From NCBI RefSeq assembly GCF_003428155.1, contig NZ_QLIR01000016.1, positions 9,412 to 41,411 on the forward strand: a stretch of DNA of 32,000 nt, written 5' to 3'. Each line of letters begins with the position of its first letter. Position 1 is the first letter of the stretch. Below the pieces are notes generated by a model that was given only the letters and a program-made list of their open reading frames with translations, was not told the DNA's origin and did no database searches. Both the position numbers and the translations under genes were made by a program. This DNA comes from Fastidiosibacter lacustris (lineage in GTDB: Bacteria > Pseudomonadota > Gammaproteobacteria > Francisellales > Francisellaceae). Positions 14,779-27,738 of this stretch are shown one piece after another.

Positions 14779-14898
14779 GCTAAATTCCTGCTATCTAAGG
14801 ATTGCTATAAACTATAGATTTGATTAATCTGCCACAATAAAATTTTTAGGTCAAATGGCTTTGCAGGAATTATTGATATGAGAAATAGAGGTGCAATT

Positions 14899-15633
14899 AT
14901 GAATACACTTAATGTTGCATGGAATTTGTACCGCTCTACATTGAAAGTATGCTTCATATTTGCGCTTGTCAGTGCGGTTATTGCTGAATATTTTAAGCTT
15001 TATGCACTAAACGCTGGCGTTGGAGAAATTATCCATGCTTATATGCAAAGTGGGCAAATCCCAGCCACACTACCTGATGCCGAAGTATTAGCACTGTTGG
15101 GTTTAAGTTCGATGTTTATCACAATGTGTGTTTATGGATTGTTGATTTGTATTGGAGGAGAGTATTTTAAAGAAGGTGTCATAAAACCTGAGCTTATGAA
15201 AAATGCCTTTGCAATATTTAGAAAGCGTTTCGGTTTGTTTTTGCTTGTTTGCATTTTAAATGGATTTCTGTGGTTTTTAGCTAGCTTTTTAAGCATATTT
15301 GGATTTTGGTTGGTAACGAGCTTCACGCTTATATTATTACCCACTGTTTTACTCGGTAATGTCGGTGTGTGGATGAGCTTTCGTGAAAATTTTCGCTTGC
15401 TAGGTAGCAACGTATTATATGCGCTGCAATTGGGATTTATTATAGTTGCCATATTGCTAATTAAATACGTAGTTTATGCGCTATTTGCTGCAATTGGCGA
15501 TGGCGTTAGTTTTGGTATTAATCATGTCGTAATTATCTTTATTGATGCTTTTAGCTTAGCGTTCATCGTCATGGTGATGGTGGCAGCATTTTATGAGTTA
15601 AATGCGAAAGATGATTTGCCAATAGAAAATTAA
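14899..15633 (+). CDS. Hypothetical multi-pass inner-membrane protein
   Basis: It has 5-6 hydrophobic helices. I preferred the ATG at 14899, with GAGGTG 6 nt upstream, to 14878. Size and topology resemble YciC/UPF0259-type proteins, but I cannot confirm this by eye. Confidence 0.6.
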   Translation: MNTLNVAWNLYRSTLKVCFIFALVSAVIAEYFKLYALNAGVGEIIHAYMQSGQIPATLPDAEVLALLGLSSMFITMCVYGLLICIGGEYFKEGVIKPELMKNAFAIFRKRFGLFLLVCILNGFLWFLASFLSIFGFWLVTSFTLILLPTVLLGNVGVWMSFRENFRLLGSNVLYALQLGFIIVAILLIKYVVYALFAAIGDGVSFGINHVVIIFIDAFSLAFIVMVMVAAFYELNAKDDLPIEN

Positions 15634-17160: not shown

Positions 17161-18438
17161 ATGAAACTTAAGATGATCGTAGCAGCGGTTGCTGCAACTG
17201 CAAGCGCTTCAGCTTTTGCAGCTGGTTCAATGAATGATCAAGTACAAAACGGTGGCGGTATCGTTAACGTTCGTACAGATGCGCAATATGCGCAACAAAT
17301 GCTAAACAACCAGCAGGTAACTGGTTCTGTATTGAATATTTTGAATGCACGTCAATCAGGTGATCTAGCCTCTAACGCTATCTATATTGGTGGAAAAGGT
17401 GAGATTTACGCGCAATATCAGAATACTTCAAGTGCCCCTAATTCAAACAATAACAGTAAAACTGAAATTAAAATGCCTTATGCTGATTTAGCATTTACAT
17501 CAACTATTGGTGATTGGGTAAGTGGTTTTGCTGATATTCAAGTTAATAATGCTGCTAGTAGTAGTGTAATATTGCCAAGTGCTTATTTTATTTTTGGTAA
17601 CTTGTCTAAGTCTCCATTCTACGCATTTGGTGGTAAAAAAGTAGTTGAATTTGGTAAATTTGATTCAGTCACTAACTTTATGCCAACCTTAACCCGTGCT
17701 TACTTTATAGCTTATGGTGGTCAAGTCGGTGCTGGTTTTACTATGAATGGTTTAGACGTTGTTGCTACTTTAATGAATGGTAAAGGCACTGCAATGATGA
17801 ACTCTCAAGCATCAAGTGCACAACAAATTAATGATTTTGCAATTAATGCTTCATATAACGGTAAAGCAGGTAACTTAGGCTACTATGCAGGTGCGGGTTA
17901 TATTAATGCAACAGGTTTCTCTGGTAATCCAACTGGTGCAAATAACAAAATGGTGGGTGCATTAGATTTTAACGCTGGTTTCAACATCCAAGGTCTTGCA
18001 GTTAATGGTGAGTTTTTAGTAACAACTTCTGGCGTTCATGGTATGAATAAGACTGCATTTGGTTCTAATACCATTCCTGGCGTTGCATCTCATCCTGATA
18101 CAGCAGGGGCAACAGCGTTTGCTATTAATGCACTTCCAACGTTAATTACTTTTGGCGGTACAACAGCGGGTGCATCTAATTGTACGGTTAAAGCGTGGAG
18201 CTTAGACTCTTCTTACACGATACCTGTTGCTGGTAAAGACATGGTGCCTTATGTATCTTATAGTCAAGTAGCACAAAACTCTGACAATAACTTATATCAA
18301 TTAGAACTTGGTACGCGTTATAACATTGTCGACACTGTTTGGCTTGGTGGTTCTTATAACTATATGTCTGGTAAATCAACAGGTACCAAAGTGGGTAGCT
18401 TCAACACAATTATGTTGGATGCAACTGTTTACTTCTAA
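17161..18438 (+). CDS. Outer-membrane beta-barrel porin (major outer membrane protein-like)
   Basis: It has a strong RBS (GAGGAG), the signal peptide MKLKMIVAAVAATASASAFA, G/N/S/T/Y-rich alternating strands and a C-terminal aromatic residue (...ATVYF). A terminator follows. The exact family is not identifiable by eye. Confidence 0.75.
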   Translation: MKLKMIVAAVAATASASAFAAGSMNDQVQNGGGIVNVRTDAQYAQQMLNNQQVTGSVLNILNARQSGDLASNAIYIGGKGEIYAQYQNTSSAPNSNNNSKTEIKMPYADLAFTSTIGDWVSGFADIQVNNAASSSVILPSAYFIFGNLSKSPFYAFGGKKVVEFGKFDSVTNFMPTLTRAYFIAYGGQVGAGFTMNGLDVVATLMNGKGTAMMNSQASSAQQINDFAINASYNGKAGNLGYYAGAGYINATGFSGNPTGANNKMVGALDFNAGFNIQGLAVNGEFLVTTSGVHGMNKTAFGSNTIPGVASHPDTAGATAFAINALPTLITFGGTTAGASNCTVKAWSLDSSYTIPVAGKDMVPYVSYSQVAQNSDNNLYQLELGTRYNIVDTVWLGGSYNYMSGKSTGTKVGSFNTIMLDATVYF

Positions 18439-20240: not shown

Positions 20241-21644
20241 ATGTTCAAATTTAGTGCAACTTATACCGATTTTTATCAATTGACAATGGCGCAATGCTAT
20301 TTTTTAGAAGGTAGAAAGTTTCAAACTGCCACTTTTGATTATTTTTTTCGTAAACATCCCTTTAATGGTGGTTATGCTATATTTGCCGGATTACAAAGCT
20401 TATTGGAGATATTGGATGGTTTTCTCTTTACCGAACAAGATTTGATATTTTTACAAAGACAAGGTTTTAATCAGCATTTTTTAAATTATTTACAAGATTT
20501 CAGTTTTCAAGGAGATATCTACTCATTCCAAGAAGGAGATATTGTTTTTCCCAATCAGCCAATTTTAACAGTTTGTGCGAATATTATTGAAGCCCAAATC
20601 GTTGAAACAATCCTTTTAAACGTCTTAAATTTTCAAACCTTGATTGCAACGAAAGCAAGTAGAATACGCCAAGTTGCCAAGGATAAACGGCTACTTGAAT
20701 TTGGTCTTCGACGTGCTCAAGGTCCTGGTGGTTTTTTTGCATCACGCGCCGCAATTATTGGGGGATTTGATGCTACAAGCAACGTTCAAGCAAGTCGAGT
20801 ACATAATATTCCCGTTGCTGGGACAATGGCGCATTCGTTTATTCAAAGCTATGAAAATGAGCTCGAAGCTTTTCGTCAATATGCAAAAAGTTTTCCTCAC
20901 AACACCACTTTATTGGTAGATACCTATAATACATTAAAAAGTGGAATTCCCAATGCAATTACAGTTGCCAAAGAAATGGAAAGCCAGGGGTTAAGACTAA
21001 AGGGTATTCGTTTGGACAGCGGTGATTTAGCATATTTATCAAAAAAAGCAAGGCACATGCTTGATACCGAAGACTTGCAATATGTTGGTATTACCGTATC
21101 TAATCAGTTAGATGAATCTGTTGTGAAAAGCTTAATCGAACAAGATGCACCTATTGATAGTTTTGGCATTGGGACGTCTTTGGCAATTGGTTACCCAGAT
21201 GCTGCTTTAGATGGTGTTTATAAATTGGCACAAATTGATGATCGTCTATGTATTAAGATTTCTGAAAGCATCACAAAAACCACTTTGCCAGGACATAAAC
21301 AAGTATACCGTCTTCTGGATCATAACAACCAGTTTTATGGTGGTGATGTTATAACGTTTTTTGATGAAAAATCGATTACCCAAATGCATCACCCATTTGA
21401 AGCTTTCAAGCATTTGAATATTGATGGTATTGCAAAAGAACCTTTATTACATAAAGTAATGCAGCAAGGGAAGGTTTTATCAAAACAGCAAGATTTAAAT
21501 ATGATTGCACAATATTGTCGTCAGCGTTTGTCACAACTGCCATCAGAATATAAACGAACAACAAACCCGCATTTATATAAAGTTGGAATGAGTGATGCCT
21601 TAAAACAAAAGCGTGATCAATTGATTGAGCAATATCATATATAG
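20241..21644 (+). CDS. pncB: Nicotinate phosphoribosyltransferase
   Basis: The product is 467 aa. TDFYQLTMAQ, EFGLRRAQG, GTMAHSFIQ, LLVDTYNT and IRLDSGDL are the NAPRTase family motifs. A GGAG RBS precedes the start. Confidence 0.9.
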   Translation: MFKFSATYTDFYQLTMAQCYFLEGRKFQTATFDYFFRKHPFNGGYAIFAGLQSLLEILDGFLFTEQDLIFLQRQGFNQHFLNYLQDFSFQGDIYSFQEGDIVFPNQPILTVCANIIEAQIVETILLNVLNFQTLIATKASRIRQVAKDKRLLEFGLRRAQGPGGFFASRAAIIGGFDATSNVQASRVHNIPVAGTMAHSFIQSYENELEAFRQYAKSFPHNTTLLVDTYNTLKSGIPNAITVAKEMESQGLRLKGIRLDSGDLAYLSKKARHMLDTEDLQYVGITVSNQLDESVVKSLIEQDAPIDSFGIGTSLAIGYPDAALDGVYKLAQIDDRLCIKISESITKTTLPGHKQVYRLLDHNNQFYGGDVITFFDEKSITQMHHPFEAFKHLNIDGIAKEPLLHKVMQQGKVLSKQQDLNMIAQYCRQRLSQLPSEYKRTTNPHLYKVGMSDALKQKRDQLIEQYHI

Positions 21645-21829
21645 CCATCGCCTCACCCTAACACATGGTGTAAACAAGCTTACGTTTACATTCCCTAACG
21701 ATTCCTAATTTGTAATCTACTACATACAGCTTGATACATAAGATAGATATTTTCTTGCGCAAAATTCTGTTAACTTCAATTTTCTGCTTGCTCGGCAAGA
21801 CTTTCCAACAGAAATATAAGGTGAACTTT

Positions 21830-23614
21830 ATGCAGAATTTTGGTCGTTTGATCTTTTTTGTTTCTCTTTTTTTTATATCTTTAGTCAAATATGCAAATTC
21901 TAATGACTTGAGCCTTGATAACTCAACTATCTTCGATTATGGATGCAAGGAACAAAACAATTCAAAATTTAAAGTCATAGTAGAAAAATATGAGCGTCAG
22001 CTGTTTTCATTATATGAAAAATGTACTCACATAAATCTTATACGCTCCAATGACCCTAATGTAATAATATCGAACTTTGAGAACGCCTTAGAGAAGAAAG
22101 ACATATGCCATGTGTCAACGCACGATATAAAAAAAATGATTTTAGATCGAGGGTATTCGGAAATCACAATGTTGCATATAGCAGCACTATTTCCAAAACA
22201 TAAACTCTATGAAGAAATTTTAAATTTAATAAGATTAGATGCTGATGCAATTGAAGATATAACAGGGGCAACGCCAGAAGATATTAGAAATTTAGTTTTT
22301 ATTGATACTTCAAAAATTGGTCAGGTAGAAGATGGTGTACTTTATAGTAATCACATTAAAAAATCATGTTCTGATATTATTGATAGCTGGCATAGTAATT
22401 ATACTAATATAATTTATGATTTAAATAATGTGCTATCTAAAAATTTTGGGTTAAATTATCAACTAAAGTTAAATAACGAATCGCTCAAGGAAATTTGTAT
22501 AAATCACAATATCTGTTTATTTTTACCGAATAAAAAACAAAGAAAAAAAATGCAACCAAAGTTAGAGCATTTATTTAAAGACGAGAGGGAATATACAACG
22601 ATAGAAACTTTTTACACCACTCATTCCAATACAAAAATCAAAGGTAGTTTTGCGTTGCAGGATATATCTCCTGGTGAGGTAATTCTGGAATATCCTGGTA
22701 AATCCAGCTCATTGACTGAGTACGAGACTGAAGATTCAAGCAGAGAGTATTCGTATGCTTATCAAAATGGAAACAAGATTAGGGGTATTGCTTCATATAT
22801 AAATGACTGTACCCCAAATGTAACAAAGATTGACGTATTATATAAGGGTGCTATCAGGGGGGTGATGGTGGCAATAGATACGATAAAGCAAGGAGAACAG
22901 TTATGCTCAGACTATGGTATGCATGATATAAAAAGGTTGAGATATGAAAACTTTAATGAGAAAAGGTTAGACTCAATAATGAGCAACCCTGAGACATGGC
23001 GTAAATTAAATAAATATGTGAGTAATGGCTCGGATAGTGCTCACATATCAACTGATAACTATGATCCTCTTGTTCGTTTATTACTTAATGAAGGGGAACA
23101 AGACTTAGAGTCGATCTATAATCGCTCCCTTTTAGTCCATATTTTAAATAGCCCATATGTTCTTTTAAATCTATTGCTTAATAAACAAATAACCCGTTAC
23201 CAATTAAGACTACTAGACGTAAGGATCTCTCCTCAATTAATGTTAAATTATTATCATATAAACTATTTAAACCTACTCTTCAATTTGTCTGATTATTTTT
23301 TAAAAGAAAAAGAAAAGACGGGTAAAATTGAAGAACAAAATTCTGTACATCGAAGTTTTAAATGGCTTTTAAAAAAAGCGATGCCAATGAATTTTGTACT
23401 GAGCTACCTTAACTTCCTCAACCACAATGACTTCTTTATTACAATAGAAGAAAAACACCAAAAGGAAGAAAATCTAATAGAAACTGCTATTGGTATGCAA
23501 CAGGTCTTTCTTGCTAATAGTCGACTTGATAATAGTTATAAGCAGTATATACGAGAAGTTAATTTTAACGATATGTTTAATGAATCGCCTATTGCACCGA
23601 AAGATGACTTATAA
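21830..23614 (+). CDS. Eukaryote-like SET-domain protein (putative protein-lysine methyltransferase) with an ankyrin-like repeat and a Sec-type N-terminus
   Basis: SET signatures occur in canonical order: IKGSFALQDISPGEVILEYPGK, YINDCTPNV (consensus NHSCxPN) and GEQLCSDYG (consensus GEELxxDY). An ankyrin-like repeat TMLHIAAL...DADAIEDITGATPEDI lies upstream. The ATG at 21830 has AAGGTGA 7 nt upstream, so I preferred it to the TTG track start at 21731. Confidence 0.8.
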   Translation: MQNFGRLIFFVSLFFISLVKYANSNDLSLDNSTIFDYGCKEQNNSKFKVIVEKYERQLFSLYEKCTHINLIRSNDPNVIISNFENALEKKDICHVSTHDIKKMILDRGYSEITMLHIAALFPKHKLYEEILNLIRLDADAIEDITGATPEDIRNLVFIDTSKIGQVEDGVLYSNHIKKSCSDIIDSWHSNYTNIIYDLNNVLSKNFGLNYQLKLNNESLKEICINHNICLFLPNKKQRKKMQPKLEHLFKDEREYTTIETFYTTHSNTKIKGSFALQDISPGEVILEYPGKSSSLTEYETEDSSREYSYAYQNGNKIRGIASYINDCTPNVTKIDVLYKGAIRGVMVAIDTIKQGEQLCSDYGMHDIKRLRYENFNEKRLDSIMSNPETWRKLNKYVSNGSDSAHISTDNYDPLVRLLLNEGEQDLESIYNRSLLVHILNSPYVLLNLLLNKQITRYQLRLLDVRISPQLMLNYYHINYLNLLFNLSDYFLKEKEKTGKIEEQNSVHRSFKWLLKKAMPMNFVLSYLNFLNHNDFFITIEEKHQKEENLIETAIGMQQVFLANSRLDNSYKQYIREVNFNDMFNESPIAPKDDL

Positions 23615-27041: not shown

Positions 27042-27176
27042 ATGAAAAGAACGTTTCAACCAAGCAACTTAAAAAGAAAAAGAACGCATGGCTTTCGTGC
27101 GCGCATGAAAACTTTAAGTGGTCAAAAAGTATTGCGTAATAGGCGTGCTAAAGGCAGACATAAGCTTGCCGCTTAA
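27042..27176 (+). CDS. rpmH: 50S ribosomal protein L34
   Basis: This gene is not in the ORF track because it is too short. My translation is [44 protein letters not shown] (44 aa), the universal L34 sequence. A GAGGA RBS precedes it. Confidence 0.95.
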
Positions 27177-27513
27177 TGCACTTAAAAAAGAAAACATATT
27201 AAATGCCAAGCGATTTAATCTTGGCTTTTCACGCATCTGCCAAAAAATTCATACCAAACATTTTTCTTATCTTATCGCTCAAGGCGAAGACCTTAGCACA
27301 AGCATCGGTATTATCGCTGGTAAAAAGAAAGTAAAAACAGCAGTTAAACGCAATTTATGCCGACGCTTAAATAAGGAAATGTTTCGTCATAACAAAGCTA
27401 AATTTACCAACACAATGTTAATCGTCATTGTAAGCCAACATGCAGATGCAGCAACGAAGGAAGATTTATGGTGTTCTATCAACAGTTTTCTCGCACAATA
27501 CGCACAATTATAG
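27166..27513 (+). CDS. rnpA: Ribonuclease P protein component
   Basis: It is a basic protein with the conserved RNR-like motif [19 protein letters not shown], located immediately after rpmH. There is no in-frame ATG near the 5' end. Candidate starts are TTG 27166 (used here) and GTG 27118, so the start is uncertain. Confidence 0.8.
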
Positions 27514-27734
27514 CACTACCTTTTATTGTACTTATTCGTAGCTACCAGATATTTATTAGCCCCTTATTAGGGATGCGTTGTCGTTTTTACCCTAGTTGTT
27601 CGCAATATGCACTAGAAGCAATTAAATTGCATGGTTTACTGATTGGGCTTTGGCTAATTACAAAAAGGCTGATAAAATGCCACCCAGCCTGTCAAGGCGG
27701 ATATGATCCAGTACCAAAGAAAGAAAAGGTTTAA
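27468..27734 (+). CDS. yidD: Membrane protein insertion efficiency factor YidD
   Basis: [31 protein letters not shown]...[13 protein letters not shown] is the YidD signature. It overlaps the rnpA 3' end. Confidence 0.9.
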
Positions 27735-27738
27735 ACTC

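Follow-up and report, generated by a model that had tools for sequence, protein, structure and literature searches.

A rare bacterial family of ankyrin-SET-helical proteins with a putatively exported, host-directed member in Fastidiosibacter lacustris

A SET-domain protein is encoded within a 32,000-nucleotide stretch of the Fastidiosibacter lacustris genome (NCBI RefSeq assembly GCF_003428155.1, contig NZ_QLIR01000016.1, positions 9,412 to 41,411 of the forward strand; hereafter the window, with positions counted from its first letter). The complete gene (21830..23614; ATG at 21830, stop codon at 23612-23614) was defined from the list of open reading frames (ORFs) and, like every other window feature for which coordinates are given here, lies on the + strand. 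It specifies a 594-residue ankyrin-like/SET protein, and the identical protein is held at NCBI with the sole annotation 'SET domain-containing protein [Fastidiosibacter lacustris]'. The product has a SET fold with invariant active-site tyrosines, belongs to a very small protein family and carries an export-type N-terminus, and its gene is also present in an obligate ciliate endosymbiont. On balance, and with a confidence only a little above even, we read it as an exported, host-directed SET-domain protein-lysine methyltransferase of a very rare bacterial family. Judging from the alignments, the layout of this family is a signal peptide or none, two ankyrin repeats, a linker, the SET domain and a family-specific helical domain.

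A SET fold with non-canonical motifs

The SET core (22643..22918; residues 272-363) was recognised by a Pfam model, by a family profile searched against PDB and by fold comparison with Foldseek. Pfam PF00856 matched with 39.8 bits (cutoff 22.4, E 6.3e-10, model positions 3-105 of 105), and the same model also matched 24 of the 25 family members described below. No NCBIfam model was found for the 594-residue protein. When all PDB chains were searched by phmmer with the full protein (E<=10), only KMT2C (best, E 0.17), a yeast H3K4 enzyme and EHMT1 chains were returned. With the family profile, the top PDB sequences were EHMT1/GLP and EHMT2/G9a (64 bits, E ~1e-16), followed by KMT2C/D, NSD1/2, SET1/SET2, EZH2, MLL1 and ASH1L. 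An AlphaFold model computed from the single sequence had a predicted local distance difference test score (pLDDT) of 35 and was discarded; it was replaced by an AlphaFold2 model that took the 25-sequence family alignment as input. This model reached a predicted template modelling score of 0.64, with a pLDDT of 70-94 over residues 250-400. Its SET region superposed on G9a, GLP, NSD1, NSD3 and MLL1 with a Foldseek probability of 1.00 (root-mean-square deviation 2.8-4 A over 120-138 columns; TM score to the MLL1 SET domain 0.57-0.66). The original prediction, made from the letters of the window, that this gene encodes a SET domain is borne out by the Pfam match and the superposition, and on the strength of the model we consider the identification of a genuine SET-fold protein to be solid.

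The same prediction had placed three SET motifs along the protein in canonical order and spacing. Their positions agreed with ours to within a few nucleotides, but the motifs themselves are not fully canonical. In the GxG motif only the second glycine (G272) is kept, and I270 aligns with the first glycine of the KMT2C GLG. The family consensus retains GxGxFA; the first glycine is absent from the window protein and from its two closest relatives. Motif III, YINDCTPNV (22796..22822; residues 323-331), was compared with KMT2C and EHMT1. Compared with (R)FINH(S/H)CxPN, the run N325-D326-C327-T-P-N330 is shortened by one residue and has Asp326 in the place of the histidine, and the canonical NH(S/H)CxPN motif for binding of S-adenosylmethionine (SAM) is missing from the window protein. 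Across the 25 family sequences, column 326 holds Asp in 18, Glu in five and Cys in two, and never His.

Other active-site positions are strictly conserved. The codon for Tyr362 (22913..22915) lies in GEQLCSDYG, and this residue aligns with the DY of KMT2C and EHMT1 and is equivalent to the catalytic tyrosine of the ELxFDY motif. The only residues invariant in the alignment (25/25) are Y288 and G290 of the EYxG motif, N330, and Y362 of the DY motif; P329 and K368 are each conserved in 24 of the 25 sequences, I352 is nearly invariant and Y307 is found in 19. Mean column identity of the same alignment is about 16-24%. Judging from the structures of G9a and SET7/9, the tyrosines Y288 and Y307 line the lysine channel and the SAM site. 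The C-terminal tyrosine is the catalytic residue of SET enzymes (PMC10653858). Since the invariant residues fall at the EYxG, PN and DY positions of SET enzymes, we argue for selection on catalysis. The acidic residue at 326, conserved as it is in 23 of the 25 members, appears to be a variant kept by selection rather than a sign of decay. Taken together, the strict conservation of EYxG, PN and DY at low overall identity and the conserved acidic substitution argue for a working but variant active site, not a dead one.

These residues bear directly on the possibility that the protein is a catalytically inactive SET pseudoenzyme, that is, a secreted or envelope protein that binds a partner through its SET, ankyrin and helical surfaces. 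The histidine of the NH motif is absent in 25 of 25 sequences, the first GxG glycine is absent in the window protein and the two closest relatives, and the ankyrin module has degenerated, all of which would fit a lost activity. However, what has stayed invariant is not surface residues but tyrosines of the active site and lysine channel (Y288 and Y362, with Y307 in 19/25), and the conserved acidic replacement suggests a functional alternative to the histidine. We consider an inactive protein rather improbable and favour a methyltransferase with a variant active site.

A very rare family with a common domain order

The family was defined by an exhaustive HMMER search of 1.84 billion cluster representatives at E<=1e-3. 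Only 24 proteins, the window protein included, make it up. The closest relatives are P0002 (670 residues, E 9e-25, aligned over residues 96-459) and P0003 (E 7e-21), whose cluster also contains the full-length P0047, and the E values of the other members lie between 1e-8 and 1e-4. All members have the order ankyrin, linker, SET, helical domain. The window protein carries the family signature, [NQ]-[DE]-[GC]-x-P-N together with the post-SET motifs H.[IV]K...Y.ELR and Y.L.TP.VL.

The relatives are all metagenomic proteins or proteins of metagenome-assembled genomes (MAGs), and the contexts of their contigs are bacterial. P0002 has flgE, parAB, mnmG, tmk and pst genes as neighbours, P0047 and P0052 adjoin metG, and P0004, which ends in HDEL, lies 30 bp from rpoN (Sigma54_DBD, 188 bits). 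P0020, from an NCBI MAG, adjoins a gene that matches Chlam_OMP, the Chlamydia major outer membrane protein family, with 46 bits; to judge from this neighbour, at least one family member is chlamydial.

Other searches added little to this set. A word-index search with the single protein recovered only the protein itself, one with the full-length alignment was dominated by generic ankyrin proteins, and one with the alignment of the SET domain and C-terminus recovered only P0001 and P0020. A family scan of the GTDB species genomes, a collection that contains neither the genome of the window nor its close relatives, gave no further family members, nor did scans of viral contigs and plasmids; a metagenome scan gave six weak ones. 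An origin from giant viruses was considered and is without support, viral fold matches being weaker than the matches to eukaryotic PDB entries. No description of the family, the protein or the architecture was found in the literature searched (on Fastidiosibacter, on effectors that combine SET and ankyrin modules, and the supplementary material of the Nebulobacter genome paper, which names no SET or ankyrin protein). As far as that literature goes, the suggestion of an undescribed architecture stands, but the layout is that of the family of 24 representatives and not of this gene alone.

Several features of individual relatives were observed in the course of the search. P0019 (1013 residues) continues far beyond the ankyrin-SET-helical unit, and this additional C-terminal stretch has a DnaJ (J-domain) match (E 2.6e-9), which suggests that different host-targeting modules have been fused to the same core. 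P0006 is directly followed by lanthipeptide biosynthesis genes, two LanC-like, one for a flavoprotein and one for a LanB-type dehydratase (locus L088, 2536-8858), a setting that is unexpected for a putative effector. An IS21-type element, with a Mu-transposase C-terminal domain and an IstB ATPase, lies 1.5-3.8 kb upstream of P0002 (L001, 6191-8543) and is the sole sign of mobility near any family member. The contig of P0009 also carries, ~3.7 kb upstream of this member, a gene for a 413-residue protein with a weak Ank_2 match (E 0.002; L084, 174-1412). The P0047-type gene, intact at 655 residues in one locus (L086, 764-2731), is split into ORFs of 375 and 221 residues in another (L089, 10001-11824), where the neighbouring dihydrodipicolinate synthase gene is split too; either a frameshift error of long-read sequencing or pseudogenisation would account for this. 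P0002 and the P0047-type paralogue come from the same sample (ERZ25068762), have similar GC contents (~34%) and bear the same '4x' contig label, and one organism may carry both copies.

The ankyrin remnant, the linker and the post-SET domain

The original prediction of a single ankyrin-like repeat was only partly upheld. No Pfam Ank family matched the window protein, even at E<=10. A hidden Markov model (HMM) of the relatives' ankyrin region, built without the window protein, did match residues 111-158 (EITMLHIAAL...GATPEDIRNL; 22160..22303) with 11.5 bits and an E value of 1.5e-5 for this single target, and the AlphaFold2 pLDDT is 75-87 over residues 100-190. Pfam Ank_2 is matched by 17 of the 25 relatives (best E 4e-13), which have a clear two-repeat module with the consensus LH.A......LL....D..GWTPLH.AA......LL..GA....N..G.T..D, and the window segment aligns to the second of these two repeats. 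Thus the element appears to be what is still recognisable, in degenerate form, of the second repeat of an ancestral pair.

Upstream of this remnant, residues 25-100 (21902..22129) form a poorly conserved N-terminal region that was not aligned to the relatives. The pLDDT is below 50 over residues 25-74, and the phmmer match to P0002 begins at residue 96. Downstream, a linker segment with the family consensus F.....V.P..L...W, DGVLYSNHIKKSCSDIIDSW (22331..22405; residues 168-192), is aligned in the family and gives a weak second-domain match to the family HMM (2.3 bits, E 0.01).

For the roughly 230 residues after the SET domain, which had been described as unassignable, there was no credible Pfam match (members searched individually) and no PDB sequence match (single sequence and profile), in agreement with that description. 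The first ~100 of these residues are nevertheless conserved across the family. We read residues 364-470 (22919..23239; motifs H.[IV]K...Y.ELR and Y..L.TP.VL..L) as a family-specific post-SET helical domain and residues 471-590 (23240..23599) as a variable helical tail, with low pLDDT and poor family alignment. The phmmer alignments to relatives reach residues 459-502, and the conserved post-SET motifs extend to H.[IV]K...Y.ELR..E.R.F and Y.L.TP.VL..L. K368 is the lysine found in 24 of the 25 sequences, the tyrosine of the YxLxTP motif is conserved in >=90%, and pLDDT is 70-86 at residues 420-460.

Predicted export and proposed action on a host

The protein begins with a predicted Sec-type signal peptide, MQNFGR / LIFFVSLFFISLV / KYANS (21830..21901; residues 1-24). 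Its n-region is positive, its hydrophobic core spans 13 residues and its cleavage motif is of the form A-x-S (ANS|ND, in which A-N-S fits the -3/-1 rule). This segment contains the strongest hydrophobic 12-mer of the family (Kyte-Doolittle 2.88, at residue 8) and is the only hydrophobic segment of the protein. Similar N-termini are found in P0002, P0047, P0004, P0009 and P0013 and are absent in most other members, including P0020 on the chlamydial contig. Such an N-terminus predicts Sec-dependent export, rather than the C- or N-terminal injection signals of type IV and type III secretion system (T4SS and T3SS) effectors. The signal peptide, like the acidic residue of motif III and the KKQRKK and KDDL elements described below, was not part of the original prediction.

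F. lacustris is classified in the family Fastidiosibacteraceae of the order Thiotrichales (Gammaproteobacteria). Contig JAMBMW010000018.1 of 'Candidatus Nebulobacter yamunensis' encodes the same 594-residue protein and differs from the window at 10 positions per 20,171 bases (99.95% identity); the lone difference within the gene, at position 22612, is synonymous. 'Ca. Nebulobacter yamunensis' is an obligate symbiont in the cytoplasm of the ciliate Euplotes aediculatus, and its genome and that of the cultivable F. lacustris are nearly indistinguishable, with an average nucleotide identity (ANI) of 99.38% (PMC9837558). An intracellular lifestyle of the source bacterium is supported.

In the mechanism that we propose, the N-terminal signal peptide would take the protein across the inner membrane by Sec, and a Sec-dependent route would then lead it through the outer membrane. 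For this second step the genome is reported to offer only type IV pilus or type II secretion system (T2SS)-like machinery, a type I secretion system (T1SS) and a VirB T4SS. Francisella type IV pilus genes mediate the secretion of Sec-dependent proteins, and the pilus is for this reason a plausible exit. The genome paper lists a T1SS, the Sec-signal recognition particle pathway, type IV pilus genes and a VirB-type T4SS (PMC9837558). Because the signal peptide would remove a SAM-dependent enzyme from the only SAM-containing compartment of the bacterium, the host cell is the most plausible place of action. In a ciliate or amoeba host, where SAM is present, the SET domain would transfer methyl groups to lysine residues of a host protein, which the ankyrin remnant and the helical domain after SET may hold by analogy with the ankyrin domain of RomA/LegAS4. 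The ankyrin domain of LegAS4 is needed for its activity. RomA/LegAS4 and the chlamydial protein NUE also set the precedent for secreted bacterial SET enzymes that methylate host histones.

Several points weigh against an exported, active and host-directed enzyme. The signal peptide call is a heuristic one. The canonical SAM-binding signatures are altered, the first GxG glycine being missing in the window protein and the NHxCxPN histidine in the whole family. Mutation of the corresponding histidine in SUV39H1 abolishes activity, and SET activity should not be assumed here, because an acidic residue replaces the histidine of the NH motif in the family. A T2SS is absent from the secretion systems listed for the genome, and F. 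lacustris grows free-living on BCYE (buffered charcoal yeast extract) medium, so that a host is not obligatory (PMC9837558). Finally, the near-identity of the two available genomes carries no information on selection on the SET gene: one synonymous site was observed where ~0.9 changes were expected, and with only about one change expected in the gene this identity is unusable as evidence of selection.

Where in a host such an enzyme might act was considered from two further sequence elements. The first is a basic cluster, KKQRKK (22532..22549; residues 235-240), that resembles a monopartite nuclear localisation signal (NLS). After export the protein might enter the host nucleus and methylate histones, a nucleomodulin like RomA/LegAS4 or NUE. 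Hexamers with >=5 Lys or Arg are rare (1 of the 29 other window proteins), both NUE and RomA/LegAS4 have basic NLS motifs, and the nearest solved SET domains are those of histone enzymes (EHMT1/2 at E ~1e-16, then KMT2C, NSD1 and MLL1). However, the cluster sits in a linker insertion specific to the window protein's lineage and is not conserved in the family, and a Sec signal peptide with a C-terminal KDDL is unlike the known nucleomodulins, which are injected by T4SS or T3SS. The pre-SET and post-SET zinc-cysteine modules are lacking, with two cysteines in the SET region and none after it, and many SET enzymes modify non-histone proteins (PMC10653858). The KKQRKK cluster would be the only hint of host chromatin as the target, and we consider nuclear histone methylation unlikely.

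The second element is the C-terminal tetrapeptide KDDL (23600..23611; residues 591-594), a candidate KDEL-like retrieval signal for the endoplasmic reticulum (ER). The combination of signal peptide and KDDL points toward Sec-dependent export and possibly toward the host secretory pathway. Were the protein released into a host-derived compartment or taken up, the host KDEL receptor could bind KDDL and the protein could be carried to the ER, to act there or after retrotranslocation. Cholera toxin (KDEL) and Pseudomonas exotoxin A (REDLK) reach the ER through the KDEL receptor. Ends of the form [KRH][DE][DE]L occur in three of 22 independent family members, namely KDDL in the window protein and HDEL in P0004 and P0007 (just 34% identical to each other), against 0.006 expected (P(>=3) 3.7e-8), a statistic that is post hoc, as the motif was noticed after the sequences had been viewed. 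P0004 has a signal peptide and, adjoining rpoN, is bacterial. In the KDEL receptor, positions -2 and -3 of the ligand must be Glu or Asp, and position -4 (Lys, His or Arg in the solved KDEL, HDEL and RDEL signals) sets selectivity (bioRxiv 10.1101/2021.03.21.436307). KDDL agrees with this receptor-derived rule, with Lys at -4, acidic residues at -3 and -2 and Leu at -1, but falls outside the classical xxEL pattern, and no mention of it as a described retrieval signal was found in the literature searched. The motif is absent from most family members, and the availability of SAM in the ER lumen is in our own assessment doubtful. 'Ca. Nebulobacter' is moreover described in the host cytoplasm, and the KDEL receptor, being luminal, would be out of reach of a protein in the cytosol. 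We consider routing to the ER improbable. Both it and nuclear histone methylation are more specific versions of the exported-methyltransferase reading, and their likelihoods overlap with that of the latter.

Comparison with known SET proteins and KDEL-tailed toxins

The window protein resembles RomA/LegAS4 of Legionella pneumophila, likewise a SET and ankyrin protein of an intracellular, protist-associated gammaproteobacterium, in this combination of modules, in having GLP/G9a as the nearest solved SET domains and in its basic NLS-like cluster. RomA/LegAS4, an H3K14 methyltransferase, has an N-terminal SET domain followed by six C-terminal ankyrin repeats (PMC10653858). In the window protein the order is reversed, as had been predicted: the ankyrin-like element (residues 111-158), one degenerate repeat where relatives have two, precedes the SET domain (residues 272-363). 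RomA is a T4SS substrate, whereas the window protein has a predicted signal peptide of the Sec type; RomA also has no counterpart of the KDDL tail or of the helical domain that follows SET. Effectors of the RomA/LegAS4 type are translocated by a Dot/Icm type IVB system, and the only T4SS in the list of the genome paper is of the VirB type. No LegAS4 chain (PDB 5CZY) was among the phmmer matches of the protein to all PDB chains at E<=10.

The order of ankyrin before SET is shared with the eukaryotic EHMT1/GLP and EHMT2/G9a, which gave the best profile-to-PDB matches (64 bits) and were among the top structural matches. In contrast to these enzymes, the window protein has no Cys-rich pre-SET and post-SET zinc modules (two cysteines in the linker, two in the SET region and none in residues 373-594). 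The EHMTs have a longer ankyrin domain with an aromatic cage that reads H3K9me1/2, whereas the window family has one or two short repeats. The NHHC histidine is replaced by Asp in a shortened motif, and the window protein is bacterial, with a predicted signal peptide.

NUE (CT737) of Chlamydia trachomatis and cpnSET of C. pneumoniae are likewise SET proteins of obligate intracellular bacteria, and at least one member of the family described here lies on a chlamydial contig. According to a review, NUE is a secreted, nuclear T3SS effector with basic NLS motifs; that description, which is the sole basis of the comparison, makes no mention of ankyrin repeats, a signal peptide or a long helical domain at the C-terminus.

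A Sec signal peptide together with a KDEL-type C-terminal tetrapeptide is the arrangement of the KDEL-tailed toxins. Cholera toxin A, E. coli LT and Pseudomonas exotoxin A are secreted by Sec and T2SS and have their enzymatic target inside the eukaryotic cell. They differ from the window protein in having an ADP-ribosyltransferase in place of SET; in the window protein no B subunit or receptor-binding domain was recognised, and KDDL is a candidate variant of the tetrapeptide. In view of these comparisons the protein is best filed, on its sequence features, as one that would work like the secreted bacterial SET effectors yet belongs to neither the RomA/LegAS4 nor the EHMT family, nor shares the T3SS character described for NUE.

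RomA/LegAS4, NUE, BtSET and BaSET are the textbook secreted SET enzymes that rewrite host epigenetic marks. To our knowledge, every known bacterial SET effector has standard SET motifs and is either injected or reaches the nucleus in some other way. An exported methyltransferase in F. lacustris would widen the host range of SET effectors to a ciliate symbiont in the Francisella/Legionella neighbourhood. It would also widen their architecture (ankyrin, SET and a new helical domain), their chemistry (an acidic residue for the motif histidine) and possibly their delivery (a Sec signal with a KDEL-like tail). The cultivability of F. lacustris and its near-identity to an obligate symbiont of Euplotes (ANI 99.38%) make it a rare tractable system. 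In the most far-reaching form of the idea, the protein would be the founding member, and a cultivable one, of a so far undescribed family of acidic-for-His SET methyltransferases exported by Sec, of which the KDDL/HDEL subset would hijack the host KDEL-receptor route to the ER, as AB toxins do. This full combination is speculative and we think it improbable; if true, the protein would be the first effector with lysine methyltransferase activity to be delivered by way of the secretory pathway of its host and not by injection.

Genomic setting

The ATG at 21830 is preceded, at a distance of 6 nt, by the Shine-Dalgarno-like sequence AAGGTG (21818..21823), read directly from the sequence. A longer form of the ORF starting at TTG 21731 is mechanically possible but is without such a ribosome-binding site. 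The ATG start is preferred because of AAGGTG, and NCBI annotates the 594-residue form too.

The gene stands by itself among housekeeping genes, as had been noted originally. Upstream are genes for a lipid A acyltransferase, a DUF3261 protein and nicotinate phosphoribosyltransferase (NAPRTase; pncB), the last being the immediate neighbour. Downstream are genes for a phosphoribosyltransferase, which adjoins the SET gene, an AFG1-like ATPase and a major facilitator superfamily transporter, and then rpmH-rnpA-yidD-yidC. No tRNA genes, meaningful flanking repeats or mobile-element genes were found near the SET gene. Its GC content, 31.1%, is the lowest in the window (z -3.15), but GC at third codon positions (GC3), 28.1%, is ordinary (z -0.85). 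The deficit lies at codon positions 1 and 2 and reflects an amino-acid composition rich in Asn, Ile, Lys and Leu, not recent transfer. Recent horizontal transfer or a genomic island was considered and is unsupported, with normal GC3 and no tRNA, flanking repeats or mobile genes nearby.

Such surroundings would also suit a methyltransferase that acts on the bacterium's own proteins, for example those of the nucleoid or envelope. Archaeal SET enzymes methylate chromatin proteins. In addition to the housekeeping neighbours, the lack of island marks and the neighbour-like GC3, there is the case of cpnSET, which methylates chlamydial Hc1 and is localised mainly in chlamydial cells (PMC3980110). However, the predicted signal peptide would take the protein out of the cytoplasm, the site of SAM and the nucleoid proteins. 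A family that is extremely rare (24 in 1.84 billion) and patchy, chlamydiae included, is also unlike a housekeeping modifier. We therefore regard action on the bacterium's own proteins as very unlikely, and an exported, host-directed methyltransferase remains the reading that we favour.

The rpmH-rnpA-yidD-yidC cluster (27042-29415) lies ~3.5 kb from the SET gene, and P0002 (L001) lies near parA-parB and mnmG (gidA). In Gammaproteobacteria both sets are typically found near oriC. This shared oriC-type neighbourhood of the SET gene and P0002 could be a coincidence or a trace of old synteny.

Two further ORFs of the window, 14878-15633 (251 residues) and 17161-18438 (425 residues), have no Pfam match and are blank in the Nebulobacter contig listing too. 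A lone 5S rRNA gene (RF00001, 77 bits) is located at 29547-29661, between yidC and a gene for a MacB/FtsX-type ATP-binding cassette transporter; it is an orphan copy, with no 23S or 16S rRNA reported anywhere in the window. The closest matches of pncB (20241-21644) in the GTDB species genomes are 59-63% identical and come from a Legionella MAG and many Flavobacteriia/Bacteroidota, not from Thiotrichales. Since the best NAPRTase match is just 63% identical, the lineage of the window is missing from that collection; the taxonomic spread of the matches may hint at a foreign origin of pncB.

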